From NCBI GenBank assembly GCA_026396065.1, contig JAPLXO010000008.1:1056-65055 (forward strand): a stretch of DNA of 64,000 nucleotides, written 5' to 3'. Positions 36,753 to 64,000 of the stretch are shown here, piece by piece. This DNA is from Candidatus Nomurabacteria bacterium (GTDB lineage Bacteria > Patescibacteriota > Minisyncoccia > Phycocordibacterales > UBA9973). Every line of letters begins with the position of its first letter. The first letter of the stretch is position 1. The position numbers and the translations under genes were made by a program. Under the pieces are notes generated by a model. The model was not told where the DNA came from. It did not search any database and saw only the letters and a list, made by a program, of their open reading frames with translations.

Positions 36753-36762
36753 TTTATCAAAA

Positions 36763-36788
36763 AACACCCCAATATGGGGTGTTTTTTG
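36763..36788 (+). terminator. rho-independent terminator
   Basis: acaccccaatatggggtgttttttg. Confidence 0.7.
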
Positions 36789-36853
36789 ATATTGCTTAAA
36801 GGGGTGAAAGGTATATAATAAGGGTATATCAGTTAAATTAATTTTAGAAAATT

Positions 36854-51480: not shown

Positions 51481-51996
51481 ATGTCTTTCAAAAAGAAAAA
51501 AGTAATAGTGAATGATGAAATGCAGAAAAAGTATGTATACTTTTTGACTGAGCCTGTGGGTAAACATTTCGATCCTGATTTCAAGCCAGATCTGACGCCC
51601 AAGGAAATGCTTTCCTTGGGCGTCTTCGGTGGCCGCTACCTCACCGATTGTAAAAAAGAATTTCCAAAAGACTGGTTCACTCGTGCGAAACTTTCTCCAC
51701 ATCATCATGATAAAAAATTAAATTATTTCGGTGTCGATGCGAGCCAGTCCTTATCAACCTGGAAGAAAAATGGATGGATTCACCCTATGGACCCGCGTGG
51801 CTGGTTTCAATGGTATTGCCGGTATTATATGGGACGAAGAATTCCCGATGAAGATGCACGACAAATAAAACGCTGGCGGATGATGCGACGACATGTCGCC
51901 CAAATACACAACAATTGCCGAGTAGGGGATATTTTCTGTCGCCCCCGCCAACGCCAAGCCCTCCTCCACTGGGCGTATGATAGTAGAAAGATTTGA
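51481..51996 (+). CDS. hypothetical protein, compositional outlier (GC-rich, Arg/Trp-rich)
   Basis: 171-aa ORF whose GC content is visibly higher than flanking genes. Confidence 0.5.
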   Translation: MSFKKKKVIVNDEMQKKYVYFLTEPVGKHFDPDFKPDLTPKEMLSLGVFGGRYLTDCKKEFPKDWFTRAKLSPHHHDKKLNYFGVDASQSLSTWKKNGWIHPMDPRGWFQWYCRYYMGRRIPDEDARQIKRWRMMRRHVAQIHNNCRVGDIFCRPRQRQALLHWAYDSRKI

Positions 51997-52673: not shown

Positions 52674-52798
52674 TTTACATTTGTAAGTAAAGTCAACTAT
52701 TTGTGAAAATAGTATTTGAGGTTATTTAATATTGAAAAATCCTTAAAAATAAGGTCAAATTTTGAAATTTCCTTAAAATGTGCTATAATTGTGAGGTT

Positions 52799-55180
52799 AT
52801 GGATAAAAAATCCCTTACAGAACAAGATATTTGTTCAAAATACGTTCTACCAGCAATTCTCGATTCAGGATGGGATTTACATACTCAAATACGTGAACAA
52901 TGGACATTCACTTCCGGCAGAATTATGGTTCATGGAAAAACTATTTCTCGCGGTGATAAAAAGCGTGCTGATTTTATTTTATATTACAAAAACAATTTCC
53001 CAATAGCTGTCGTTGAAGCAAAAGATAATACACATTCTGCTGGAGCAGGTCTCGAACAAGCAAAACAATATGCAGAAATTTTAAATATTCCATTTGCGTA
53101 TAGTACCAATGGTGATGAATTTGTAGAATATGATTTTTTAATTGGTACAGAAAAAACTTTTCCATTAAATGAATTTCCAGATCGAGAAGAATTAATGCGT
53201 CGTTTCTCAGAATCAAAAGATTACAATCAAGAACAAAAAGAAGTAATTCTTCAAGATTATTTTATAGATCCTTCAGGTAAGGGGCCTCGTTATTATCAAG
53301 AAAATGCTATAAACAAAGTTGTCGAAGCTGTAGCCAAAGGAAAAGATAGACTTCTTTTAGTAATGGCAACCGGAACAGGAAAGACATATACAGCATTTCA
53401 GATAATTTACAGACTTTGGAAATCAAAGAAAAAGAAAAGAATTTTATTTCTCGTAGATCGTACAGCTTTGGCTCAACAGACAATGCAAGGTGACTTTCGT
53501 CATTTTGGTGGAGCGATGACTCGTATTAAAAATGGTACAGTAGATAAAGCATATGAGATTTATGTTGCTTTATATCAAGGTCTCACTGGTGGTAGTAATT
53601 CTGAAAATGATATAGAAGCTGAAGAAGAAAAGAAAAAACTCTTTCAAGAATTTTCTCCTAATTTTTTTGATCTTATTGTTGTAGACGAGTGTCATCGTGG
53701 TAGTAGTAATGAAAATAGTGCATGGAGAGAAATTTTGAATCACTATACTAGTGCAACACAGATTGGTATGACTGCTACACCAAAAGAAACCACCGATATG
53801 AGTACTGAGGAATACTTTGGTAAGTCTGTATATACATATTCATTAAAACAAGGTATTGATGATGGATTCCTTGCACCATATAAGGTTATTCGTTATAGAT
53901 TCAATAACGACGAATGGCGTCCGATAGAAGGTTTTCGTGACGTAAATGGAGAAATTGTTCCTGATGAGATTTATACCGAAGGTATGTTTGACCGTACTAT
54001 CATTATAGATGAACGTAATAGAGCAGTAGCAAAATGTATTGCAGATTTTATGAGAGATACTGATGTGTATCAGAAAACAATTGTTTTCTGTGTTGATATC
54101 GCACATGCAGAGCGTATGCGTACTTGTTTGACGAATGAATTAAAAGAACAAACAAAAGAAAATTCTAGATTTATAGTAAAGATAACAGGGGATGATACTT
54201 TTGGAAAAATGGAAATTGAAAATTTTATTAATCCCGAATCTCGATATCCAGTTATCGCGACGACTTCAAAGCTTCTTTCTACTGGAGTTGATACAAAGAC
54301 AGTTAAACTCATTGTCCTTGATTCACCTATGAATTCAATGACAGAATTCAAGCAAATCATTGGTCGTGGTACACGTGTCGAAGAGCAATACGGAAAATAT
54401 TATTTTACTATTATGGATTTTAGAAATGTTACTCGTCTTTTTGCTGACAAAGATTTCGATGGTGATCCTGTGAAAGTCTATGATGTTGATGGAAAAGATC
54501 CTGTTGATATTGAGAGCTTGATGAACGAAGAAACAAGGTCTGAAGAAATGATAAAAGAATTAGATCCGTTGGCTGAAGTTTTGATTGATGGTACTCAAAC
54601 AGAAGAAAAACCAAAAAAGATTCGTATCAAAGACGGAGTTGATTTTTATCCTATTCATCAAGAAGTAAAATATATCGATCCGAAGACAGGTAAACTCATT
54701 ACTGAATCATTAAAAGATTTTTCAAAGAAAACAATTATTTCTGAGTATGCATCTATTGATGAATTTCTGACTCGTTGGAAAGAAATAGAAAGAAAAGACA
54801 TCATCGTAAATGAATTACTCGATCGCGGTGTTGCTTTTGAAGAGCTTCGTAAAGAATCCGGTAAAGACCTCGATGTGTTTGATTTGATTTTACATGTTGC
54901 CTATGGCAAGAAGCCGATGACTCGTAGTGAAAGAGTTAAAAAAGTTCACGCAAATGATTATTTTGGAAAATATGAAGGCAAAGCAAGGGAAATAATAGAC
55001 TTATTACTTACAAAATATACAGACCAAGGTATTACTGCTATTGATGGTATTGAAGATTTGATGGTTTCTCCATTTACCGACTATGGTACTCCTATAGAAA
55101 TAGTTGAGGATATTTTTGGAGGTAGAGAATCCTATATGGAAGTTATCAAAAACATAGAAAATAGTTTATACTCAGATTAA
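52799..55180 (+). CDS. hsdR: type I restriction enzyme R subunit
   Basis: N-terminal HsdR nuclease region, helicase motifs VMATGTGKTYTA and VVDECHRG (DEAH), motif VI QIIGRGTR. Confidence 0.85.
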   Translation: MDKKSLTEQDICSKYVLPAILDSGWDLHTQIREQWTFTSGRIMVHGKTISRGDKKRADFILYYKNNFPIAVVEAKDNTHSAGAGLEQAKQYAEILNIPFAYSTNGDEFVEYDFLIGTEKTFPLNEFPDREELMRRFSESKDYNQEQKEVILQDYFIDPSGKGPRYYQENAINKVVEAVAKGKDRLLLVMATGTGKTYTAFQIIYRLWKSKKKKRILFLVDRTALAQQTMQGDFRHFGGAMTRIKNGTVDKAYEIYVALYQGLTGGSNSENDIEAEEEKKKLFQEFSPNFFDLIVVDECHRGSSNENSAWREILNHYTSATQIGMTATPKETTDMSTEEYFGKSVYTYSLKQGIDDGFLAPYKVIRYRFNNDEWRPIEGFRDVNGEIVPDEIYTEGMFDRTIIIDERNRAVAKCIADFMRDTDVYQKTIVFCVDIAHAERMRTCLTNELKEQTKENSRFIVKITGDDTFGKMEIENFINPESRYPVIATTSKLLSTGVDTKTVKLIVLDSPMNSMTEFKQIIGRGTRVEEQYGKYYFTIMDFRNVTRLFADKDFDGDPVKVYDVDGKDPVDIESLMNEETRSEEMIKELDPLAEVLIDGTQTEEKPKKIRIKDGVDFYPIHQEVKYIDPKTGKLITESLKDFSKKTIISEYASIDEFLTRWKEIERKDIIVNELLDRGVAFEELRKESGKDLDVFDLILHVAYGKKPMTRSERVKKVHANDYFGKYEGKAREIIDLLLTKYTDQGITAIDGIEDLMVSPFTDYGTPIEIVEDIFGGRESYMEVIKNIENSLYSD

Positions 55181-55183
55181 TAT

Positions 55184-56605
55184 ATGTCATCCCAAATTCA
55201 ATCAATCATAAAAAATATTCAAGATGAAATGCGCAAAGACGCAGGGCTCGATGGTGATGCACAACGTATCTCACAGCTTGTATGGATGCTATTCTTGAAA
55301 ATTTTTGATGACCGTGAAAAGAACTTGGAACTCATTGATCCAAAATATGTTTCTCCAATTCCTGAAAAATTCCGTTATCGTAATTGGGCTGTTGATGATG
55401 AAGGCATCACTGGCCAAGATCTTGCAGACTTCATCGATAAAGAGCTTTTCCCTGCACTCAAAAATCTTTCCATTTCCGATACTGATACTCGTGGATTCTT
55501 GATAAAGAATATCTTTACTGATACGTATAACTATATGAAGAATGGTACGCTCATTCGTAAAGTTTTTAATAAAATAAATGAAATAAATTTCAATAAAAAA
55601 GACGACCGTCATGCATTCGGAGATTTGTATGAAAAGATTTTGAAAGATCTTCAAAATGCTGGAAATGCAGGGGAGTTCTATACACCACGCCCACTGACGA
55701 AATTCGTGGTAGATATGGTCGATCCAAAGTTTGGTGATACAATCCTCGATCCTGCATGTGGCACAGGAGGATTCCTCGTCAATGCACTCGAGCATATGCG
55801 TGCTGGTGTAAAAACTGCAAATGATGAAAAGAAACTACATTCATTCGTAAACGGTGTAGAGCTCAAACCACTTCCACACATGCTCGCTATTACAAATATG
55901 ATTCTCCATGGAGTTGAAGACCCCTCTACTATTCTTCGTGGCGATATGCTTTCTCGTCCATATACTGATTATGGTCCGAAAGATCGCGTCGATGTTATTC
56001 TTGCAAATCCACCTTTCGGGGGTACTGTTACTGATGGCACAGAATTAAATTTCCCATCACAATTCCGCACAAAAAGTACTGCAGAATTATTTCTTGTTTT
56101 ATTTGTTCACTTATTAAAAGATGGCGGTAGGGCTGGTATAGTTTTACCCGATGGGTCTTTATTTGGTGATGGAGTTATTGCAAAGGTTAGAGAATATCTT
56201 ATGACTGAATGTAACCTTCACACTATTGTCCGTCTTCCTCCGGGAGTTTTCAATCCATATGCAGGAGTAAATACAAACTTACTCTTTTTCACTAAAGGTG
56301 AGCCTACAAAAGAAGTTTGGTATTACCAGATGAAGCTTCCAGCTGGACTTCGTGCTTATACAAAGACCAAGCCTATTACAGATGCAGAATTTGATACAGT
56401 CAAAGAATGGTGGAAAAATCGTGCCGATTTTTCCACCGACAACGCATGGTGTGTTTCCATCGAAGACATAAAAGCTAAAAATTGGAATTTGGACTTCAAG
56501 AATCCAAAGGGTGGGGAAGTAGAGGAAGAATTCGGGTCGAAAGAATTGGTTGAGAGAATTTTTGGAAAAGAAGAGGAAATTAAAAAGATTTTGAAGAATA
56601 TATAA
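55184..56605 (+). CDS. hsdM: type I restriction-modification N6-adenine DNA methyltransferase subunit
   Basis: HsdM N-terminal domain, motif I DPACGTGGFL, motif IV ILANPPFGG. Confidence 0.85.
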   Translation: MSSQIQSIIKNIQDEMRKDAGLDGDAQRISQLVWMLFLKIFDDREKNLELIDPKYVSPIPEKFRYRNWAVDDEGITGQDLADFIDKELFPALKNLSISDTDTRGFLIKNIFTDTYNYMKNGTLIRKVFNKINEINFNKKDDRHAFGDLYEKILKDLQNAGNAGEFYTPRPLTKFVVDMVDPKFGDTILDPACGTGGFLVNALEHMRAGVKTANDEKKLHSFVNGVELKPLPHMLAITNMILHGVEDPSTILRGDMLSRPYTDYGPKDRVDVILANPPFGGTVTDGTELNFPSQFRTKSTAELFLVLFVHLLKDGGRAGIVLPDGSLFGDGVIAKVREYLMTECNLHTIVRLPPGVFNPYAGVNTNLLFFTKGEPTKEVWYYQMKLPAGLRAYTKTKPITDAEFDTVKEWWKNRADFSTDNAWCVSIEDIKAKNWNLDFKNPKGGEVEEEFGSKELVERIFGKEEEIKKILKNI

Positions 56606-56606
56606 T

Positions 56607-57062
56607 ATGGATGAGCAAATCATTAAAATTAAAACAATAATGACAGAAGTTTCTACTGGAGTTGCTAGAATTCAAGAGATGAATGACACTTATAAAGTTT
56701 TATATAAAGAAATTGCTAGTTATTGCAAAGAATATAGTATCAAAAATACTAACCCGTATTCTGATTTATGGGAATTTTATAGTTATTGGTCAAAAAAACT
56801 TCCTAAATATTCTGATAGAAGATCATATATTATTGAGTTATATAAAAAATTTGGTTTAGGAAAAGAACAAAAGAAGAATTTACGAATTACTACATTTTAT
56901 GTAAATAAAGATAGGATTAAAGAAATACAAAAAATTAAATCTTTGTCCTTTGATTTCAAAAAATTATCAAAACTTTGTGAAGAAATAAATATTTTGGGTA
57001 TAAAAATTTTTCAGATGTATGTGCACAATATGGTAAAAAAAGTTTTAAAGAAGTATCATTAA
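56607..57062 (+). CDS. hypothetical protein embedded in type I RM operon (gene A)
   Basis: 151-aa ORF starting 1 nt after hsdM stop; no motif recognised. Confidence 0.5.
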   Translation: MDEQIIKIKTIMTEVSTGVARIQEMNDTYKVLYKEIASYCKEYSIKNTNPYSDLWEFYSYWSKKLPKYSDRRSYIIELYKKFGLGKEQKKNLRITTFYVNKDRIKEIQKIKSLSFDFKKLSKLCEEINILGIKIFQMYVHNMVKKVLKKYH

Positions 57063-57208: not shown

Positions 57209-58726
57209 ATGAAAGAAAATGAAGCAAAAATACACTTTTCAGATTTTTTTAAGGTAAGTCATGATTTAGTTGAGAATTATGGTGCTCTTGATATATCACT
57301 TCTATCAGATAATCCTGCTTTCGTGGATCCATTTTTAATTTTCTATAGTAAAAAAAGTGAATACGAAGTGTTGCATAAGCAGATTATTGAATATATTTTT
57401 TTCTTAAAAAGAAATAGTGATAATGGTAATTATTTAGAAACTAATTATAAATTTCCAGAAGTTAGCCAAACATGGTTAGGATATTCAAGACATGGAAATA
57501 AAGGGAGAGGTCTTGGTCCGAAGTTTGCTAAAGAGTTAGATAAAAATTTGACGGAAATATTTTTTGAATTACAAGATAGTAAAATTACTAAAAGTCCACA
57601 TTTAGAAAAACTTTGTCTAGTTGCTAAGGGTGTTGGGGTTGATAATATTAGTGATTTTACACTTAATCTTGTTAAAGGTTATTTAATTAAATATACAAAA
57701 AATTTTTGTAAGGAAAATGTCAATCCTAAATTTTTAAACGATTTTGGTATTTCTAGAATTGAATTTGATTTTGAAAAAGGAATTTGGATTGATGGAGTGG
57801 CAAGTTTGCCATTCATTTATAATGAAAAAGGATTGAAAGAATACGTATTATTAACTCCTAAGGATATTTTAGTAAAAGAAGAAGATTGGATTTCAAAAAG
57901 CGATTTTCTTAAACATGACAGTGTTATTTTAAATAGAATTGATAATCAGGATTTAAGAGATAAAATTAATCAATATTTTAATGCATTGATTCCAGTTAAA
58001 ATAAACAAAAAAGGTAAAAAAGTTCCGGATAATTCTCAAAAAAATAGAAAAGAAGCGTTAATAGAAACTGCTAAAAAATATACAATATTATTAGAGTATT
58101 ATATACGATATAAAGAAAATGAAGGATCTCCTGTTGTTAAAAGAAACTTAGAGGATGTTTCTTTGATTAAAGATATTTTTTACTCAGAAGCAAGAAAAAT
58201 TGTGTCTGAATTAAAAAATGACACAGAATTTTATAAAAAACCACTTTCTTCACTCGAAGAAAGTATCAAGAAAATAAAGATATTTAAACATTATCTAGAG
58301 GACAGGAATAACTGTAGAATCTTTTGGGATGGTGAAAAGTTAAAAAAAATAAAAGAAGATGATATTGGAATATTATTAGATCTTATTTTTAACGAATCTT
58401 TGTTTTCTGTCGATAATCAAGTAAATAATGGCAGAGGTCCTTCTGATGTAAAAGTTTCAATGGGTAGAAAAGATTGTACTATTATTGAAATAAAACTTGC
58501 GTCAAATCCGCAAATGCCTAAAAATCTAAAAAATCAATTAGATATTTATAAAAAAGCTAACGATACTTACAATGGTGTCTATCTCATTGTATATTTTACA
58601 AATGATGAAAAAGTTAAGATGGAAATTTTATTAAAAAAGTTAAATATGTTTATATATATTGATAAATATATATTTCTTATTGATTGTCGAAAAAAGATTT
58701 CTGCATCTAAAGTAAATGAACTATGA
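57209..58726 (+). CDS. hypothetical protein embedded in type I RM operon (gene B), C-terminal PD-(D/E)xK-like motif
   Basis: 505-aa ORF; C-terminal region has hydrophobic-D (IGILLDLIF) then TIIEIKLAS (ExK). Its stop overlaps the hsdS start (ATGA). Confidence 0.5.
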   Translation: MKENEAKIHFSDFFKVSHDLVENYGALDISLLSDNPAFVDPFLIFYSKKSEYEVLHKQIIEYIFFLKRNSDNGNYLETNYKFPEVSQTWLGYSRHGNKGRGLGPKFAKELDKNLTEIFFELQDSKITKSPHLEKLCLVAKGVGVDNISDFTLNLVKGYLIKYTKNFCKENVNPKFLNDFGISRIEFDFEKGIWIDGVASLPFIYNEKGLKEYVLLTPKDILVKEEDWISKSDFLKHDSVILNRIDNQDLRDKINQYFNALIPVKINKKGKKVPDNSQKNRKEALIETAKKYTILLEYYIRYKENEGSPVVKRNLEDVSLIKDIFYSEARKIVSELKNDTEFYKKPLSSLEESIKKIKIFKHYLEDRNNCRIFWDGEKLKKIKEDDIGILLDLIFNESLFSVDNQVNNGRGPSDVKVSMGRKDCTIIEIKLASNPQMPKNLKNQLDIYKKANDTYNGVYLIVYFTNDEKVKMEILLKKLNMFIYIDKYIFLIDCRKKISASKVNEL

Positions 58727-59910
58727 AAACTAATTGGCAAACAAAAAAACTAAGTGAAGTTTGTACTATTGTTGGTGGTGGTACACCAAAAACTGGAATT
58801 TTCGAATATTGGGATGGTGATTTATGTTGGGTAACTCCCAAAGATCTTGGAAGACTTGATGGTTTTGAAATTTCGGAAACAGAAAGAAAAATTTCTGAAA
58901 TAGGACTTAAAAATTCTTCAGCACAAAAATTACCAATTGGTTCAGTAATTCTTTCTTCTCGTGCACCAATTGGTTATGTTGTTATTAATACAGTACCAAT
59001 GGCAACAAATCAAGGTTGTCGTAGTTTTGTTTGTGGTGCTTATATTTTTAATAAATATTTATATTATTTTCTTATTTCAAATACAGAGTTATTAAATTCA
59101 TTAGGTAGTGGCTCAACATTTTTAGAGGTTTCTGGTTCAAGGTTAAAAGAAATTGAAATTCCACTCCCATCACTCGAAACTCAAAAGAAAATCGTGGAGA
59201 TTTTGGATGAGAAATTTGCAAAGATTCGTGAAGCGAAAAGTTTACGTGAACAATCCATCACCGACACAGAAAAAATCCTTTCCCAAACTCTTCGTGAAAT
59301 TTTTGAAGAGGGTAAAGAAAAAGGATGGGAAGAAGATATTTTAAATAATGTTGCTGCAAAAGTTGCAGATGGTACACATGATACACCAAAATATCAATCA
59401 AAAGGTTTTCCTCTAATCACTTCAAAAAATCTTCTAGAATCTGGTCTAGATTTTTCTAATATAAAGTATATTTCTGAAGAAGATTATATTCAGATTAAAC
59501 AAAGATCAGGAGTAAATAAAGGAGACTTGCTTATTGCAATGATTGGAACTATTGGAAATATAACGAGAGTAGAAACAGAACAAAAATTTAGTATTAAAAA
59601 TGTTGGACTTATTAAACCAGATGAAGATAAGGTTTTAGGTAAATATATAATGTATTTTTTACATAATTCTAGATTGATGTCTTTGATAGAAAGTAAGGGT
59701 GCTACACAGAAATTTATTGCACTTGGACCAATTAGAAATATAAAAATTAAATTTCCATCACTTACAGAACAGAAGAAAATTGTAGAAAGATTAGATGCAC
59801 TTTCAGAAAAAATTCGACAAATGGTAGATTTGCAAAAATCACAACTTGAAGATTTTAAAAAATTAGAAAAATCATATCTCCGCGAAGCCTTCAACGGGGA
59901 ATTGATATAA
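58723..59910 (+). CDS. hsdS: type I restriction-modification specificity subunit
   Basis: Two target-recognition domains separated and followed by the conserved repeats IPLPSLETQKKIVEILDEKFAKI and IKFPSLTEQKKIVERLDALSEKI. Confidence 0.85.
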   Translation: MKTNWQTKKLSEVCTIVGGGTPKTGIFEYWDGDLCWVTPKDLGRLDGFEISETERKISEIGLKNSSAQKLPIGSVILSSRAPIGYVVINTVPMATNQGCRSFVCGAYIFNKYLYYFLISNTELLNSLGSGSTFLEVSGSRLKEIEIPLPSLETQKKIVEILDEKFAKIREAKSLREQSITDTEKILSQTLREIFEEGKEKGWEEDILNNVAAKVADGTHDTPKYQSKGFPLITSKNLLESGLDFSNIKYISEEDYIQIKQRSGVNKGDLLIAMIGTIGNITRVETEQKFSIKNVGLIKPDEDKVLGKYIMYFLHNSRLMSLIESKGATQKFIALGPIRNIKIKFPSLTEQKKIVERLDALSEKIRQMVDLQKSQLEDFKKLEKSYLREAFNGELI

Positions 59911-59942
59911 CATCCTTACATACTGGAGTTTGTCAGTATGAC
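59911..59942 (+). repeat. hairpin repeat H1 (degenerate copy of gtcatccttacaaac-tggag-gtttgtaaggatgac family)
   Basis: catccttacatactggagtttgtcagtatgac immediately after hsdS stop. Confidence 0.7.
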
Positions 59943-59953
59943 AAAATAATTAA

Positions 59954-60067
59954 ATGAACAAATACGAACAAAAGGCGGAGGTGGAGATTGATCTGCATGG
60001 GCATACGATGCCCGAGGCGGGGGGAGGTCTTGGATATTTTATTATATTTACCCATTCGTACGAATAG
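59954..60067 (+). pseudogene. truncated smr 5' fragment (copy S1)
   Basis: Encodes MNKYEQKAEVEIDLHGHTMPEAG then diverges to GGLGYFIIFTHSYE-stop. The first 24 codons are homologous to the intact smr at 62675. Confidence 0.6.
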
Positions 60068-60077
60068 GTAAATAAAC

Positions 60078-60111
60078 GTCATCCTTACAAACTGGAGTTT
60101 GTAAGGATGAC
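60078..60111 (+). repeat. hairpin repeat H2 (perfect 15-bp stem)
   Basis: gtcatccttacaaac tgga gtttgtaaggatgac. Confidence 0.8.
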
Positions 60112-60167
60112 GGAATGTTTAATGTAAGGAAATTTTAATACTAATTTTGTAGGAATTGTTACGAAGT

Positions 60168-60197
60168 CCAGCGACTTTAGTATACTAAAGTCGCTGG
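60168..60197 (+). repeat. second palindromic element P (copy 1)
   Basis: ccagcgactttagtatactaaagtcgctgg; identical element at ~61624-61655. Part of a ~250-bp repeat unit (59954-60203 vs 61424-61664). Confidence 0.7.
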
Positions 60198-60251
60198 GCA
60201 GGAAAGTGTCAATATTTAAATTAAAAGTTTTCCATAGTTGATAGTGAACAA

Positions 60252-61292
60252 ATGTTCACATATAATATAAGTATGAAGAAAGTAATTAAAAAAATACAAA
60301 AGAATACAAAAAACGACTTAGTCATTTATCAAGCAAAGTCAGGGGCTATTGAGTTCCGTGGTGATTTTAATAAGGAGACTATTTGGGCTACACAGGCGCA
60401 AATCGCTGAGATTTTCGGTGTTAATTCACAAGCGATAACAAAACATATAACTAATATTTATAAAGAAAAAGAACTTAGTCAAAAGGCAACTTGTTCCAAA
60501 ATGGAACAAGTTCGAATGGAAGGTAACAGACAAATTAAAAGAAATTTAGATATATATAACTTAGATATTGTTATTGCAGTTGGATATAGAATTAATTCAA
60601 AAATTGCCACTCAATTTCGTATCTGGGCTACAAAGACTCTTCGTGAGCATATTGTAAAAGGTTATACCGTAAACGAAAAGAGATTGCTTCAAGTTACAGA
60701 TAAATTCAGAGAATTACAAAATACTGTTTTGTTCTTGCAGGAAAAATCTCAGAAAGAATTACTTTCAGGCCAAGAAAACGAAGTTTTGAATTTACTCGCA
60801 TCTTATGCAAAGACTCTCACTATCCTCGATGAATATGACAAGGGAGATTTAAAACAAGTCAAAGGAGAAAAAGCAAAATTTATTTTAACTTATGAAAAAT
60901 CCATAGAGATACTCGTCGAAGTTAAAAAAGAATTGATGGCAAAAGGCGAAGCAGGAGAACTTTTTGGAAATGAACGCGATGGATCTTTTGATGGAATAAT
61001 AAAAGGCTTGTATCAGACATTTGGTGGTAAAGAATTATATGCAACGCTTGAAACTAAAGCAGCGCATTTACTGTACCTCATCATCAAAGATCATCCGCTT
61101 TCAGATGGTAACAAGCGTACAGCGTCTTTCCTGTTTGTATATTTCTTGGACAAGAATAATGCACTTTATAGAAAAAATGGAGAAAAGAAAATAAACGACA
61201 ACGCGCTCGCTGCGCTCGCGCTCCTCATTGCCGAAAGTAATCCAAATGAAAAGGATATTATGGTGGCTCTTATAACGCAGTTATTAAATTAA
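60252..61292 (+). CDS. RhuM-family N-terminal domain fused to Doc/Fic-family toxin domain
   Basis: N-terminal RhuM-like blocks (IEFRGDFNKETIWATQAQIAEIFGV, IVIAVGYRINSKIATQFRIWATK); C-terminal Doc-type motif HPLSDGNKRTA. Confidence 0.7.
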   Translation: MFTYNISMKKVIKKIQKNTKNDLVIYQAKSGAIEFRGDFNKETIWATQAQIAEIFGVNSQAITKHITNIYKEKELSQKATCSKMEQVRMEGNRQIKRNLDIYNLDIVIAVGYRINSKIATQFRIWATKTLREHIVKGYTVNEKRLLQVTDKFRELQNTVLFLQEKSQKELLSGQENEVLNLLASYAKTLTILDEYDKGDLKQVKGEKAKFILTYEKSIEILVEVKKELMAKGEAGELFGNERDGSFDGIIKGLYQTFGGKELYATLETKAAHLLYLIIKDHPLSDGNKRTASFLFVYFLDKNNALYRKNGEKKINDNALAALALLIAESNPNEKDIMVALITQLLN

Positions 61293-61384
61293 TGCCAAAC
61301 AAATACGAACAAAAAGCCGAAATAGAAATAGATTTACATGGATATACGATGCTCGAGGCGGGGAATATTTCAGATTATAAATAG
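61292..61384 (+). pseudogene. truncated smr 5' fragment (copy S2), ATG overlapping the Doc gene stop (TAATG)
   Basis: MPNKYEQKAEIEIDLHGYTMLEAG identical to the intact Smr N-terminus, then NISDYK-stop. Confidence 0.6.
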
Positions 61385-61417
61385 TCATACTTACATACTG
61401 GAGTTTGTAAGTATGAT
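61384..61417 (+). repeat. hairpin repeat H3
   Basis: gtcatacttacatac tggag tttgtaagtatgat (one mismatch in stem). Confidence 0.7.
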
Positions 61418-61423
61418 AAAAAA

Positions 61424-61541
61424 TATGCCAAACAAATACGAACAAAAGGCCGAAATAGAAATAGATTTACATGGATATACAATGCTTGAGGCGGGGGGAG
61501 GTCTTGGATATTTTATTATATTTACCCATTCGTACGAATAG
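61424..61541 (+). pseudogene. truncated smr 5' fragment (copy S3)
   Basis: MPNKYEQKAEIEIDLHGYTMLEAGGGLGYFIIFTHSYE-stop; same divergent tail as S1. Followed by the half-hairpin gtcatccttacaaac (H4, right arm deleted). Confidence 0.6.
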
Positions 61542-61777
61542 GTAAATAAACGTCATCCTTACAAACACGGAATGTTTAATATAAGGAAAATTTTAATACA
61601 GGTTTTGTAGGAATTGTTACGAAGCCCAGCGACTTTAGTATACTAAAGTCGCTGGGCAGGAAAGGTTTTATTCTAATTTTACTTGTTTTAAAGTCCAAAA
61701 GCGTGAAAAAGGCTACTTTTTAGCATATTTTCACGCTTTTGTTGACAAAACAGTGAAAAAGACTATAATTAGTATAT

Positions 61778-62668
61778 ATGGCAAAAATACCAGCAGTATT
61801 TAATAAAATTAACTCTCTTAGGGAGAGATATTACAAAGCTTCTACTGGTAAAGAAGCGCTTATTAATCTTGTCAGTGAAGCCGAAGTCGCTGAACAAGTG
61901 TATAACTCAAATGCTATTGAAAATAGCACTCTAACACTCGAGGAAACAGAAAAAATTCTTTTGCAAATTGATCTCGATAGATATATCAACGAGCGCGAGA
62001 TTTTTGAAGCTAAAAATCTCGCGCGAGTGGTGTCATATATCGAAAAACGTTCGAAAGAACAAGATCTAACTCTCGAAGTAATATTGTCACTTCATAAAAT
62101 GTTGATTTCAAATATTCGCGATGATATCGCAGGTAGATTTCGAAAAGATAAAGAATTTGTACGAGTAGGTAGTCATATTGCTCCTTCTCCACAAGAAATA
62201 CTTGAGAGACTAGAGAACATGCTTGCAGAATACAATGCAAATAGCCACGAAAGTATTGTGAAGCGTATTGCGCGACTACATCTAGTATTTGAGCATACTC
62301 ATCCATTTGTCGATGGTAATGGACGTATCGGACGTGTATTAAACAATTATCTTTTAATTCGTGAAGGATTTGTCCCTATCAATATTAAATTTATAGATCG
62401 TAAGAAATATTATAATGCGTTTAAAGAATTTGATGAAAAAGGAAAAACAAAAATAATGGAAGAAATTGTCGCTAAAGCTTTGACCAATAGTTATCACAAA
62501 CGTTTAGCGTATTTAGAAAATAAAAAAATTGTTACATTAGTAGAATATGCAAAATCTAATAAGATTTCTCATTCAAATCTTATTAACAAAGCTACTCGTC
62601 AAACAATTGATGCTTTTTTAGAAAAAGGTATTTGGAAAATTGGTATTGAATATAATAAGACTAAATAA
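61778..62668 (+). CDS. Fic family protein (adenylyltransferase-type)
   Basis: Canonical Fic motif HPFVDGNGRIGR. Confidence 0.85.
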   Translation: MAKIPAVFNKINSLRERYYKASTGKEALINLVSEAEVAEQVYNSNAIENSTLTLEETEKILLQIDLDRYINEREIFEAKNLARVVSYIEKRSKEQDLTLEVILSLHKMLISNIRDDIAGRFRKDKEFVRVGSHIAPSPQEILERLENMLAEYNANSHESIVKRIARLHLVFEHTHPFVDGNGRIGRVLNNYLLIREGFVPINIKFIDRKKYYNAFKEFDEKGKTKIMEEIVAKALTNSYHKRLAYLENKKIVTLVEYAKSNKISHSNLINKATRQTIDAFLEKGIWKIGIEYNKTK

Positions 62669-62674
62669 AATCTA

Positions 62675-62941
62675 ATGCCAAACAAATACGAACAAAAAGC
62701 CGAAATAGAAATAGATTTACACGGATACACGATGCTTGAGGCGGGGAGTGTTTTAGACGATTTATTTCGTGAAGCAAAGTACAAACATGTCAGAATAATT
62801 ACAGGCAAAGGCAAGAATAGCGAGAATGGTCCCGTCTTGCCGAACTTTGTGCGAAACTATTTGAATTCCCGCGGGGTGCATTACAATCAATCCAAACTTC
62901 AATCCGGCGGCGAAGGCGCACTCGAGGTTTTTCTCCGTTAA
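62675..62941 (+). CDS. Smr domain protein (intact copy)
   Basis: 88 aa: IDLHGYTMLEA, VRIITGKGKNS, GGEGALEVFL Smr-domain blocks. Confidence 0.75.
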   Translation: MPNKYEQKAEIEIDLHGYTMLEAGSVLDDLFREAKYKHVRIITGKGKNSENGPVLPNFVRNYLNSRGVHYNQSKLQSGGEGALEVFLR

Positions 62942-62971
62942 AATTCTCTCCACCCCCCCCTCACTTTCGAC

Positions 62972-63010
62972 TTATCCACATACCAACATACTGGAGTTTG
63001 TAAGGATGAC
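62972..63010 (+). repeat. hairpin repeat H5 (degenerate left arm)
   Basis: atccacataccaacatactggagtttgtaaggatgac. Confidence 0.6.
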
Positions 63011-63317
63011 GTTTTGTAATATGACTATGGCAAAAATAAAAACAGCAAAACAAATGGAGCGACATTTGAAAGGCATGTCAAACCATCATCGTATCGAGAT
63101 TTTATTATTAGTGGGGAAGCAAAGTGGAATTACACTCGATCAGATTATCGGGTTACTCAACGCGAATCCGAAAACAATAGGTGAGCATACACGCCGACTG
63201 CATAATGCTGGTTTAATAAATAAAAAATACAAAGGCAAATTTGTACAACATTCATTATCTCCATACGGAAAAACTTTTTATAATTTTCTCAAAGCATTTC
63301 AAAACCTCACTCAATAA
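63006..63317 (+). CDS. ArsR/SmtB-like winged-helix transcriptional regulator (true start possibly MAKIK)
   Basis: HRIEILLLV...ITLDQIIGLL...TIGEHTRRLHNAGLI helix-turn-helix pattern. Confidence 0.55.
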   Translation: MTFCNMTMAKIKTAKQMERHLKGMSNHHRIEILLLVGKQSGITLDQIIGLLNANPKTIGEHTRRLHNAGLINKKYKGKFVQHSLSPYGKTFYNFLKAFQNLTQ

Positions 63318-63328
63318 TTTAAATACAT

Positions 63329-63362
63329 GTCATCCTTACATACTGGAGTTTGTAAGGATGAC
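63329..63362 (+). repeat. hairpin repeat H6
   Basis: gtcatccttacatac tggag tttgtaaggatgac. Confidence 0.8.
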
Positions 63363-63395
63363 AATATACATTTTTATATGTGGTATACTTAACCC

Positions 63396-63935
63396 ATGAT
63401 AAAAACTACACTTGTGTTCGTTTCGGTTATCGCTCTTTTTGCGGTAGGCTCTTTGGTTATTTCTCACAACAAAACTGTTGTTGTACAGAAACCGGTTATT
63501 ACCAACTTTGAAGAATGTGTCAGAGATGGTCGTCCTATCATGGAGACATATCCTCGTCAGTGTCGTGATGATAGTGGTCATGTATTTACTGAAGTTGTAG
63601 TATCGCCAGTGACTCCACCAGTATCAGATGTTCAAAATTTTAGTACAGAATATTTATTGAATATCGATGGACATATTACGTTGCCTGATGGGCTCACTGT
63701 TACATTGAAAAAAGTAAATGATTCACGTTGTCCAAAAGGTGTCACGTGTGTTTGGGCAGGAGAACTCGCACCAGTGTTGTCGGTAATGGGTGGATATTTT
63801 GGCACTGCGGTTCAAGAAGTAATTATTGGTACAGTCAGAAATCAAAGTGATACAACTGGTGGATATACATTTGCTATTCGATCTGCGACAATAGAAAGCG
63901 CAAACATTGTAGTATATAGAGGTGTTTCAAATTAG
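63396..63935 (+). CDS. hypothetical secreted/membrane-anchored protein
   Basis: N-terminal TM/signal; Cys-containing extracytoplasmic domain. Confidence 0.5.
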   Translation: MIKTTLVFVSVIALFAVGSLVISHNKTVVVQKPVITNFEECVRDGRPIMETYPRQCRDDSGHVFTEVVVSPVTPPVSDVQNFSTEYLLNIDGHITLPDGLTVTLKKVNDSRCPKGVTCVWAGELAPVLSVMGGYFGTAVQEVIIGTVRNQSDTTGGYTFAIRSATIESANIVVYRGVSN

Positions 63936-64000
63936 ATATTAAAACAATGTATTATATTTATATCGTACAATGCGCAGACAAGAGTTTATATACTGGTATC

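Follow-up and report, generated by a model that had tools for sequence, protein, structure and literature searches.

Organization of the hairpin array

We analysed a 64-kb stretch of DNA from a Candidatus Nomurabacteria bacterium (the window; coordinates count from its first letter), which holds at 59.9-63.4 kb an array of palindromic hairpins, 5' ends of an smr gene, two Fic-family genes and a gene for a small winged-helix protein of the helix-turn-helix (HTH) kind. Five full hairpins (H1, H2, H3, H5 and H6) and one left half (H4') were found, all six on the + strand, and the number expected by chance is none. The array palindrome is GTCATCCTTACAWAC-TGGA-GTTTGTAAGGATGAC, and its full copies start at 59911, 60078, 61384, 62979 and 63329. 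A covariance model of 127 non-redundant copies, run over the whole 64 kb with filters off, recovered only these six copies; its sole additional match (36756-36790) is a terminator of the ordinary kind, with a GC stem and a T-tract. Comparison with other genomes, pieces of which are labelled L and a number, revealed that the hairpin, a palindromic DNA element of about 32-44 bp, occurs throughout the Patescibacteria, and that the HTH gene is its only recurrent neighbour. The features of the array are as follows.

58723-59910, + strand: hsdS, final gene of a Type I restriction-modification (R-M) operon (Pfam Methylase_S, 6e-45)
59911-59942, + strand: hairpin H1 (core 59914-59937; 52.5 bits), which opens duplicated unit 1
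59954-60043, + strand: smr 5' fragment A; a frameshifted tail gives a 37-aa open reading frame (ORF) ending at 60067
60045-60074, no strand: pal1 copy 1, a 30-nt palindrome, tatttacccattcgtacgaataggtaaata
60078-60111, + strand: hairpin H2, perfect, apex of the canonical ACAAAC type (63 bits)
60168-60197, no strand: pal2 copy 1, ccagcgactttagtatactaaagtcgctgg
60238-60266, + strand: RhuM-Fic promoter, sigma-70-like, TTGATA-17-TATAAT (11/12)
60273-61292, + strand: RhuM plus Fic/Doc fusion gene (Pfam; matches PADLOC phage-defence candidate PDC-S23 over its full length, 7e-122), 99.2% identical to L088
61292-61374, + strand: smr 5' fragment B, 83 nt, L088-type allele; its end is the junction to the H3 left flank
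61384-61417, + strand: hairpin H3 (53.9 bits), which opens duplicated unit 2
61427-61517, + strand: smr 5' fragment C, L042/L088-like allele, frameshifted tail as in fragment A
61519-61548, no strand: pal1 copy 2
61552-61566, + strand: half-hairpin H4', left arm only (19.3 bits)
61626-61655, no strand: pal2 copy 2
61701-61769, + strand: Fic cassette head with palindrome GCGTGAAAA...TTTTCACGC, TTGACA, third GTGAAAA and TATAAT (12/12 promoter)
61778-62668, + strand: Fic gene, SoFic / PDC-S04-like defence candidate
62675-62941, + strand: intact smr, 88 aa, Smr domain only
62979-63010, + strand: hairpin H5 (48.3 bits), core ending 21 nt before the HTH start codon
63027-63317, + strand: HTH gene, 96-aa ArsR/SmtB-type winged-helix protein
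63329-63362, + strand: hairpin H6 (57 bits), 11 nt past the HTH stop codon
63396-63935, + strand: 179-aa ORF without a family match, hydrophobic N-terminus, directly after H6

The hairpins, the four smr 5' copies and the duplicated unit described in an earlier note on this DNA are all present. Of the six hairpin copies counted there, five are full and one is a half-site, and H5 starts at 62979 rather than where it had been placed. The duplication, given as ~250 bp, is longer (~320 bp; 59911-60231 versus 61386-61689) and starts at hairpins H1 and H3; each unit runs in the order hairpin, smr 5' fragment, pal1, hairpin, spacer, pal2. There are indeed four copies of the initial 72 nt of smr, with only the 62675 copy complete (ATGs at 59954, 61292, 61427 and 62675), but the third ATG needed correction to 61427 and the fragments extend further, B to nt 83 and both A and C to about nt 91-93 with a 1-nt frameshift. 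The gene named 'Doc' has a Fic/Doc domain and is in fact a fusion with RhuM. A hairpin had been reported after every ORF; this did not hold, since RhuM-Fic and Fic have smr sequence next, the ATG of fragment B overlapping the RhuM-Fic stop as TAATG. No hairpin in the window lies within an ORF.

Analysis of the individual copies revealed two apex types. The canonical apex occurs in H2, which has a predicted fold of -27.6 kcal/mol (z -8.3), and in H4', which differs from H2 by the deletion of 17 nt (loop and right arm). The clade-specific ACATAC apex, with a T.T mismatch, occurs in H1, H3, H5 and H6 and also in L042, L047, L094 and L095. H1 is of this resident type with a degenerate right arm, H3 has complementary changes in both arms, and H5 is chimeric, joining a degenerate left arm of the ACCAAC type to a GTAAGG right arm. 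Because the apex types differ between H2/H4' and the other hairpins, and the smr alleles differ as well, the array and its units are mosaic. The second palindrome, pal2, is private to the two duplicated units. Neither the hairpin nor pal2 matched the viral contigs searched, and a phage origin was rejected.

Distribution and structure of the hairpin

An exact search for the 24-nt hairpin core was carried out with one genome per species, and the other genomes were examined as pieces of 8-20 kb. A total of 87 stretches (at least 87 loci) with an exact match were identified, all in metagenome-assembled genomes (MAGs) of Patescibacteria type, so the hairpin is not private to the array. These MAGs are assigned to Nomura-, Taylor-, Sung-, Yanofsky-, Jorgensen-, Lloyd-, Moran-, Harrison-, Niyogi- and Tagabacteria, and several carry the label Saccharibacteria or Gammaproteobacteria. 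The sequence is near-identical among lineages whose names span 33-54% GC, with a few exact copies per MAG. In the searchable literature neither the hairpin sequence nor a comparable Patescibacteria element was found in any paper. In Rfam 15 the best score was 27.7 bits, for a family (ar14) whose gathering score is 58.8, with all other families weaker, and a known RNA family was rejected.

Variation in the apex ACAAAC-TGGA-GTTTGT is all but absent; the centre ACAAACTGGAGTTTGT does not vary, and the ends do. Beyond the core each locus has its own sequence, which is still complementary, with a perfect Watson-Crick extension of 0-18 bp (median about 5-6). T-A forms the first outer pair in 74 copies and C-G in about 21. 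The outer core occurs as discrete complementary forms (CCTTAC/GTAAGG, CCCTAC/GTAGGG, ACCTAC/GTAGGT and ACCAAC/GTTGGT). Changes on both sides of the stem were counted in 231 cells (127 distinct copies) compared with 152 +/- 10 after shuffling, a value that none of 500 shuffles reached, and a control with slid partners gave 117-153. The stems are perfect and without bulges, and G is nearly missing from the left arm, as is C from the right arm. Internal mismatches comprise T.G (7), C.A (2) and other combinations (37), a T.T mismatch being kept in 14 copies; since G.T is not preferred over A.C, RNA is not singled out as the folded molecule, and a structure acting only as RNA was rejected.

The hairpin stands 4-25 nt past stop codons, and its CTGGAG loop lies on the sense strand in 13/15 copies between co-directional genes and in 10/12 copies within ORFs (binomial p about 3e-4 from those counts). 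Among the six copies of the array, only H2 has a T-rich tail, and this on the - strand. The + strand copies lack a T-tract and no further copy exists in the 64 kb, so the generic intrinsic terminator, which the earlier note had named as the finding that would overturn its interpretation, was rejected. The window has at 36756-36790 a canonical bidirectional intrinsic terminator, aaaaaacacccc...ggggtgtttttt, which indicates that this genome uses ordinary terminators. A replication landmark of the parS, Ter or dif kind was also rejected: GC skew is monotonic over the window, genes do not change orientation in a consistent way at HTH loci in the pieces examined, and the element is multi-copy and found in ORFs.

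A second hairpin-punctuated array was found in L030 (250-2508), in the order RhuM-Fic homologue, hairpin, small Zn-ribbon ORF, hairpin, 323-aa ORF, hairpin, HTH gene, hairpin, with the two distal hairpins inverted relative to the genes. In L006 and L029, which belong to one MAG, the hairpins lie inside a larger common repeat (gtgccaYgggtaataaaaaYat-core-atRtcRagtggaaaaagtataaa), suggesting a longer composite repeat in that genome.

The winged-helix gene and its hairpins

Homologues of the HTH gene at 63027-63317 account for 25/175 ORFs flanking the hairpin and occur in 28/87 hairpin loci at 55-86% identity. The family has >1500 clusters at 90% identity; its members are all about 95 aa long and all named sources are Patescibacteria. 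Hairpins stand on both sides of the gene in about 30/35 loci. In most of these the core of the upstream hairpin stops 20-22 nt short of the ATG, a (tg)TATAAT-like box lying in the gap, and the downstream hairpin lies 8-19 nt past the stop codon. Loci that were found through the HTH protein or Smr instead of the hairpin (L088-L095, L103/L104) likewise have flanking hairpins. In the syntenic piece L096 the HTH gene and the hairpins are both missing, and the indel between L095 and L096 begins at the hairpin left flank, immediately after the smr stop codon.

By sequence the HTH protein is a distant ArsR/SmtB member (Pfam HTH_5, 5e-05; NCBIfam HTH_metalloreg). Its predicted fold places it clearly in this family: the AlphaFold2 model (pLDDT 84.5) has SqrR, HlyU, CadC, CzrA, SmtB and NolR as top Foldseek matches, with probability 1.0 and TM scores of 0.65-0.77. 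Its recognition helix and wing hardly vary, a parallel to the invariant apex of the hairpin, and the half-sites ACAAAC and GTTTGT are 10 bp apart centre to centre. One HTH gene may be flanked by two different outer-core forms, each self-complementary (L025, L090), which argues that it is the pairing and not the outer-stem sequence that is kept. Overall, this co-location suggests that the hairpin is the cognate binding site of a dimer of the ~95-aa winged-helix protein and that the gene is autoregulated, the upstream hairpin probably mediating autorepression.

Hairpin copies within genes

About 12/96 exact copies lie in frame within long ORFs and mostly read (Q)HPYKLEFVRM; four of the six reading frames of the hairpin are open. 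The host proteins, as assigned by Pfam, are PPDK (PPDK_N), TatD, UvrC, Sua5/YrdC, TruB and HsdS, and in several the domain match spans the hairpin. In L067 the copy (2065-2088) is in frame and antisense in the central region of hsdS, between both target-recognition domains. In Uhrbacteria L103 (4542-4589) and L104 (2117-2164) a third hairpin copy lies inside a TspO_MBR gene beside the HTH gene, and TspO-like genes neighbour hairpins in L003 and L055 too.

The Sua5 copy was compared among orthologues. It reads aacatCCTTACAAAC-TGGA-GTTTGTAAGGatgtt in L058 and aacatACCAACAAAC-TGGA-GTTTGTTGGTatgtt at identical codons in L097, whose host protein is about 70% identical. The two differ by three double complementary substitutions, which alter the peptide (PY to TN, R to G) and leave the palindrome perfect; this argues for selection or conversion acting on the palindrome and not on the peptide. 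In L099 the loop is flipped (TCCA) and the left arm is decayed. In L098 the hairpin is absent and a 21-nt stretch of unrelated sequence stands there, so a clean empty site could not be defined.

The defence island and the smr fragments

The array forms part of a defence-island slot whose content is different in every relative. Its left bound is a 171-aa gene (51481-51996) with the segment reaching about 52762, and its right bound is smr. The Type I R-M operon is the left portion of this variable island, and its genes upstream of hsdS are as follows.

52778-55180: hsdR (Pfam ResIII/EcoEI_R_C)
55184-56605: hsdM (Pfam N6_Mtase)

Two additional ORFs lie between hsdM and hsdS (56607-57062 and 57209-58726). 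One of 505 aa matches the PADLOC candidate PDC-M36A (2e-17), and one of 151 aa is without a family.

Close smr homologues with flanks as in the window were found in L042, L047, L088, L094, L095 and L096, and in these relatives the 5' end of intact smr is the right edge of the variable island. Upstream of smr, L042 has two D12 methyltransferases, an AlwI-like endonuclease and a HARE-HTH/PD-(D/E)XK protein; L047 and L096 have a Schlafen-type helicase fused to an S24 peptidase, with RNase H added in L047; and L095 has a different Type I R-M system. Between L047 and L095, which are 95-97% identical, similarity ends exactly at the smr ATG. The 179-aa ORF after H6 is variable as well, being present in L088 and not in L042, where a GIY-YIG gene directly follows the hairpin. 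The comparison of cassette content among relatives called for in the earlier note thus showed different genes round the hairpins in every one. All six relatives hold intact smr only, without orphan smr fragments, an absence that the earlier note had counted against its own view. In L094 a hairpin lies immediately 5' of intact smr, and the ~320-bp unit therefore looks like a decayed hairpin-smr-hairpin cassette.

The closest comparison is with L088, a metagenome contig of 3.4 kb that encodes an HTH protein at 98% identity. Positions 1-711 of L088 match window 60664-61374 at 99.2% (6 differences) and positions 620-1963 match 62665-64000 at 93% (94 differences, evenly spread), so that RhuM-Fic is 99% identical on a 93%-identical backbone. 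The window has 1382 nt more than L088 (H3, smr fragment C, pal1, H4', spacer, pal2 and Fic). A 92-nt direct repeat from the start of smr (-9 to +83) flanks this segment on each side, and at one junction smr nt 83 meets the H3 left flank. Since L088 is without the second unit, the array is polymorphic, and the earlier proposal that it is a product of recombination was supported. The smr alleles differ: the first 72 nt of fragment A are L047/L096-like (94% identical to L096 smr over 67 nt, 66-75% to the other smr copies), fragment C is L042/L088-like and fragment B matches L088. About 200 nt past nt 72 are nearly identical between fragments A and C.

The Fic cassettes

Both Fic-family genes are candidates for self-promoted defence genes (PDC-S23 and SoFic/PDC-S04) judging from their sequences, and they are probably leaderless. 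Both promoters are strong, the RhuM-Fic promoter ending 6 nt before the in-frame ATG at 60273 and the Fic promoter (TTGACA-16-TATAAT) ending 8 nt before its ATG. A palindrome, GTGAACAAATGTTCAC, lies between the -35 and -10 boxes of RhuM-Fic (60246-60261) and is a candidate operator for another regulator. The Fic control region has three GTGAAAA motifs, an inverted pair upstream of the -35 box and one between -35 and -10.

Homologues of the Fic protein form at least 7995 clusters (E <= 1e-40), and at 83-90% identity the protein occurs in Pacebacteria, Azambacteria, Staskawiczbacteria, CPR1 and Minisyncoccia. The cassette head (CGTGAAAA...TTTTCACG, TTGACA, GTGAAAA, TATAAT) is conserved in L061, L073 and L100-L102, with different neighbours in each genome and no hairpins at the Fic loci of L100-L102. 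In L061 and L073 the cassette is 96% identical and stands on opposite sides of an 86%-identical hairpin-HTH-hairpin block, directly upstream of one of two DUF1905 paralogues and behind a remnant of the 5' end of that gene. The recurrent order there is an orphan 5' fragment of the downstream gene, promoter and Fic, and the intact downstream gene, all without hairpins. Since orphan fragments are found beside another target gene where hairpins are lacking, the scars accompany the Fic cassette and its target gene and not the hairpin. The hairpin is accordingly not supported as the cassettes' own recombination site, as had been suggested, and belongs to the Patescibacteria-wide element tied to the HTH gene. 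Flanking direct repeats are absent in L100-L102 and were rejected as a general trait of the cassette. Taken together, these comparisons indicate that the Fic cassettes are probably independent mobile units. In L100 (4001-8106) the Fic homologue has as neighbours a tRNA gene, genes for a PLD-like protein, GIY-YIG and a large serine recombinase, and a Type ISP R-M system, a region that looks like an integrative defence island.

Origin of the array

We favour, at a probability of roughly one half, a reading in which the hairpin is the binding site of the HTH protein and the array was built by homologous and illegitimate recombination in a defence-island slot. H5-HTH-H6 would then be a module of a winged-helix gene bracketed by its binding sites, standing at the edge of the chromosomal slot, with autorepression exerted where the upstream hairpin abuts the -10-like box of the gene. 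The outer stem would need only to pair around an invariant apex, and the extra copies (H1-H4' here, intergenic and in-ORF copies elsewhere) may be boundary or roadblock sites bound by the HTH protein. Long conserved palindromes could also be fragile and recombinogenic. Each Fic-family gene would stand behind a decayed, hairpin-flanked smr cassette (~320 bp) and ahead of an smr 5' end, and the four smr 5' copies could have arisen from tandem duplication or serial insertion of the ~320-bp unit, with one illegitimate or microhomology junction joining smr nt 83 to the hairpin flank. Homologous recombination on DNA that related strains exchange would refill the slot upstream of smr, and the cargo gene would then be swapped through the repeated flanks by the same route. 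Recombination of fragment B with intact smr would turn the window-type allele into the L088-type allele. Host recombination would suffice for all these steps and a dedicated integrase would not be needed.

Several findings weigh against this reading. The link between the HTH protein and the hairpin is one of co-location, and a convincing -35 box could not be placed relative to the upstream hairpin. A simple operator leaves unexplained the selection for outer-stem pairing, the sense-strand bias of CTGGAG (13:2, and 10:2 in ORFs) and the maintenance of copies within coding regions. The step from 99% to 93% identity between the window and L088 does not decide between gain, loss and transfer. Furthermore, two independent smr truncations fall within 20 nt (nt 83 and about nt 93), each near a hairpin left flank, which hints at a process more site-specific than random illegitimate recombination.

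Such a process is the core of the explanation closest to the earlier note, in which the hairpins are site-specific recombination sites, folded or duplex, as in integrons or dif modules, the genes are cassettes and the recombinase (e.g. Xer-type) is encoded elsewhere. We regard it as unlikely. The integron-like logic of the note is only partly supported. In its favour, same-orientation hairpins lie between genes here, hairpins punctuate L030, L061 and L028, chimeric hairpins join arms of different forms, the loop is flipped at the Sua5 site of L099, and strand bias and stem covariation are reminiscent of attC. A hairpin edge is also the boundary of the variant, to within a few nt, in three comparisons of close relatives, namely H3 (window/L088), H6 (window/L042) and the left hairpin (L095/L096). 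Comparison of close relatives was used in place of a global count of breakpoints at hairpins (46/161 versus 5.3 expected), which was set aside as confounded because distant loci have no conserved DNA block in common other than hairpin-HTH-hairpin. The defining tests of an integron, however, gave negative results. No tyrosine or serine recombinase was found in the 64 kb by motif scan and tblastn (a positive control recovered Xer-like genes in L014 and L018), among annotated neighbours, in the 1.5 kb past the window as judged from L088 or in 7 kb downstream in the syntenic L095, in agreement with the earlier note for the window and extending its result beyond 64000. The adjacency of a hairpin and a recombinase was seen only in L018, where the hairpin (131-154) lies about 40 nt past the 3' end of a XerD-like tyrosine recombinase gene (192-869), a point in favour of such a site. 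The chimeric hairpins are not reciprocal pairs and were rejected as attL/attR, the clearest breakpoints lie in the smr 5' end rather than in the hairpins, and the Fic cassette moves hairpin-free in L061/L073 and L100-L102. Fixed spacing round one conserved gene and copies in housekeeping ORFs are unexpected for att sites. As the earlier note had recognised, the hairpins are not attC, for their conserved centre and variable ends are the reverse of attC and the right arm GTTTGTA misfits GTTRRRY; nor do they behave as pdif sites, which alternate in orientation whereas all six copies here are direct. Site-specific recombination at the hairpins is thus possible, though not required. Copies in frame in PPDK, TatD, UvrC, Sua5, TruB, HsdS and TspO, diverse flanking genes, presence or absence at the Sua5 site and near-identity across lineages of differing GC would suit a selfish miniature palindromic repeat, similar to a Rickettsia palindromic element (RPE), a repetitive extragenic palindrome (REP) or a miniature inverted-repeat transposable element, that spreads within and between genomes of the group and puts up with in-frame insertion. 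The HTH gene would then be either a neighbour that was domesticated or a locus where the repeat often lands, and repeated insertions would account for the array. This view is unlikely given the lack of any transposase association or visible target-site duplication, the low copy number (none elsewhere in 64 kb, few exact copies per MAG), the fixed spacing to the HTH start and stop and, at Sua5, compensatory changes in hosts about 70% identical, which indicate maintenance and not decay.

An element acting in RNA, as a stabiliser of transcript 3' ends, a processing site (e.g. for RNase III) or a factor-dependent terminator, would agree with the loop bias, the placement past stop codons, the strong predicted folds and the stem covariation. 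We consider it improbable, as the + strand has no T-tract in a genome that uses canonical terminators elsewhere, the mismatches do not favour G.U over A.C, a T.T mismatch is retained, Rfam has no match and cleavage or termination within essential ORFs would be harmful. An assembly artefact, with strain variants bearing different Fic genes chained through the shared smr and hairpin repeats, can be set aside almost entirely: the window is probably a metagenome-assembled contig, and at the repeat its identity to L088 drops from 99% to 93%, but a repeat-mediated chimera would not give the unique junction of smr nt 83 with TTATAAATA-H3, the private complementary substitutions of H3 and the divergence of fragment A would go unexplained, and the repeats (34-92 nt) are short relative to usual read or insert lengths. 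A bolder proposal, which we hold to be quite unlikely, is that hairpin and winged-helix protein form an undescribed, superphylum-wide system specific for DNA structure, in which the sites are insulating and recombinogenic joints that organise and exchange defence cassettes. The protein would recognise the extruded or single-stranded hairpin by its invariant apex, and the system would do the work of attC arrays or pdif modules without a linked integrase, in bacteria that are believed to rely on taking up DNA.

The earlier note was partly right. The array and the scars in it did arise by recombination, in a defence island, and the hairpins are part of a broader, undescribed hairpin-HTH system and not of the cassettes. 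Patescibacteria are largely uncultured and have tiny genomes with few regulators, and to our knowledge almost nothing has been reported on their gene regulation or genome plasticity. The hairpin and the conserved 95-aa DNA-binding protein constitute a concrete protein-DNA pair that is testable in vitro without cultivation. If regulator and sites are confirmed, they would be among the first candidate regulons or boundary elements to span the candidate phyla radiation; if the sites are recombination joints, they would represent a new way of building defence islands. The Fic cassette, with its triple-GTGAAAA control region and orphan target-gene fragments in two lineages, is a lead on how single-gene defence modules circulate.

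Comparison with known systems

The hairpin-HTH pair would work most like an autoregulated ArsR/SmtB repressor with palindromic sites. The repressors SmtB, CzrA, CadC, NolR, HlyU and SqrR bind palindromic operators of the 12-2-12 type. The pair shares with them the predicted fold, the small dimeric-repressor type, a palindrome directly upstream of its own gene and half-sites one helical turn apart. It differs in having a second site directly after the gene, a palindrome lengthened by a covarying stem (up to about 20 bp per arm), extra copies between and inside unrelated genes with strand bias, and a protein and site conserved across a superphylum, with no sensor site identified in the protein.

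Integron arrays resemble the present one in that genes are punctuated by hairpins that are in one orientation, strand-asymmetric and constrained in structure, with variable defence- or toxin-like content. Unlike integrons, the array has no IntI in the window, the neighbours, L088 or L095 and its sites have no R''/L''/L'/R' boxes, the right arm GTTTGTA having T at the fourth position of GTTRRRY. The attC centre is variable and has extrahelical bases, integron cassettes are mostly promoterless and read from Pc whereas the Fic-type genes here have their own 11/12 and 12/12 promoters, and the present sites also occur within ORFs and around one fixed gene. In Acinetobacter, pdif modules carry toxin-antitoxin and other genes between short palindromic sites and are shuffled between replicons by a recombinase encoded elsewhere (PMC6449649, PMC13141974). 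The small modules bounded by short palindromes are alike, but pdif sites are 28-bp 11-6-11 XerC/XerD sites, alternating and on plasmids; those of the array are direct, chromosomal, unrelated in sequence and tied to a winged-helix gene, and their arms are identical instead of distinct C and D arms as in Xer/dif.

Rickettsia palindromic elements can sit in frame in protein-coding genes (PMC1779305; review PMC10969869). The palindromes described here resemble them in lying in frame inside conserved genes and varying among orthologues. In REPtrons, REP repeats flank the gene for a REP-associated tyrosine transposase (RAYT) on both sides, and the HTH gene is likewise flanked by its repeats. The present element falls far short of RPEs in length and of REPs in copy number, its flanked gene encodes a winged-helix DNA binder and no HUH (Y1) transposase, and its in-gene copy is maintained by compensatory change.

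Defence-island hot spots and the minimal mobile elements of Neisseria involve homologous exchange between conserved flanking genes. They are similar to the slot described here in that one place holds a different R-M or defence set in each relative and similarity stops at the flanking gene, in this case at the smr ATG. The slot in the window differs from them in its internal repeats (hairpins and smr 5' fragments), its tandem stacking of cassettes and the orphan 5' fragments of the flanking gene.

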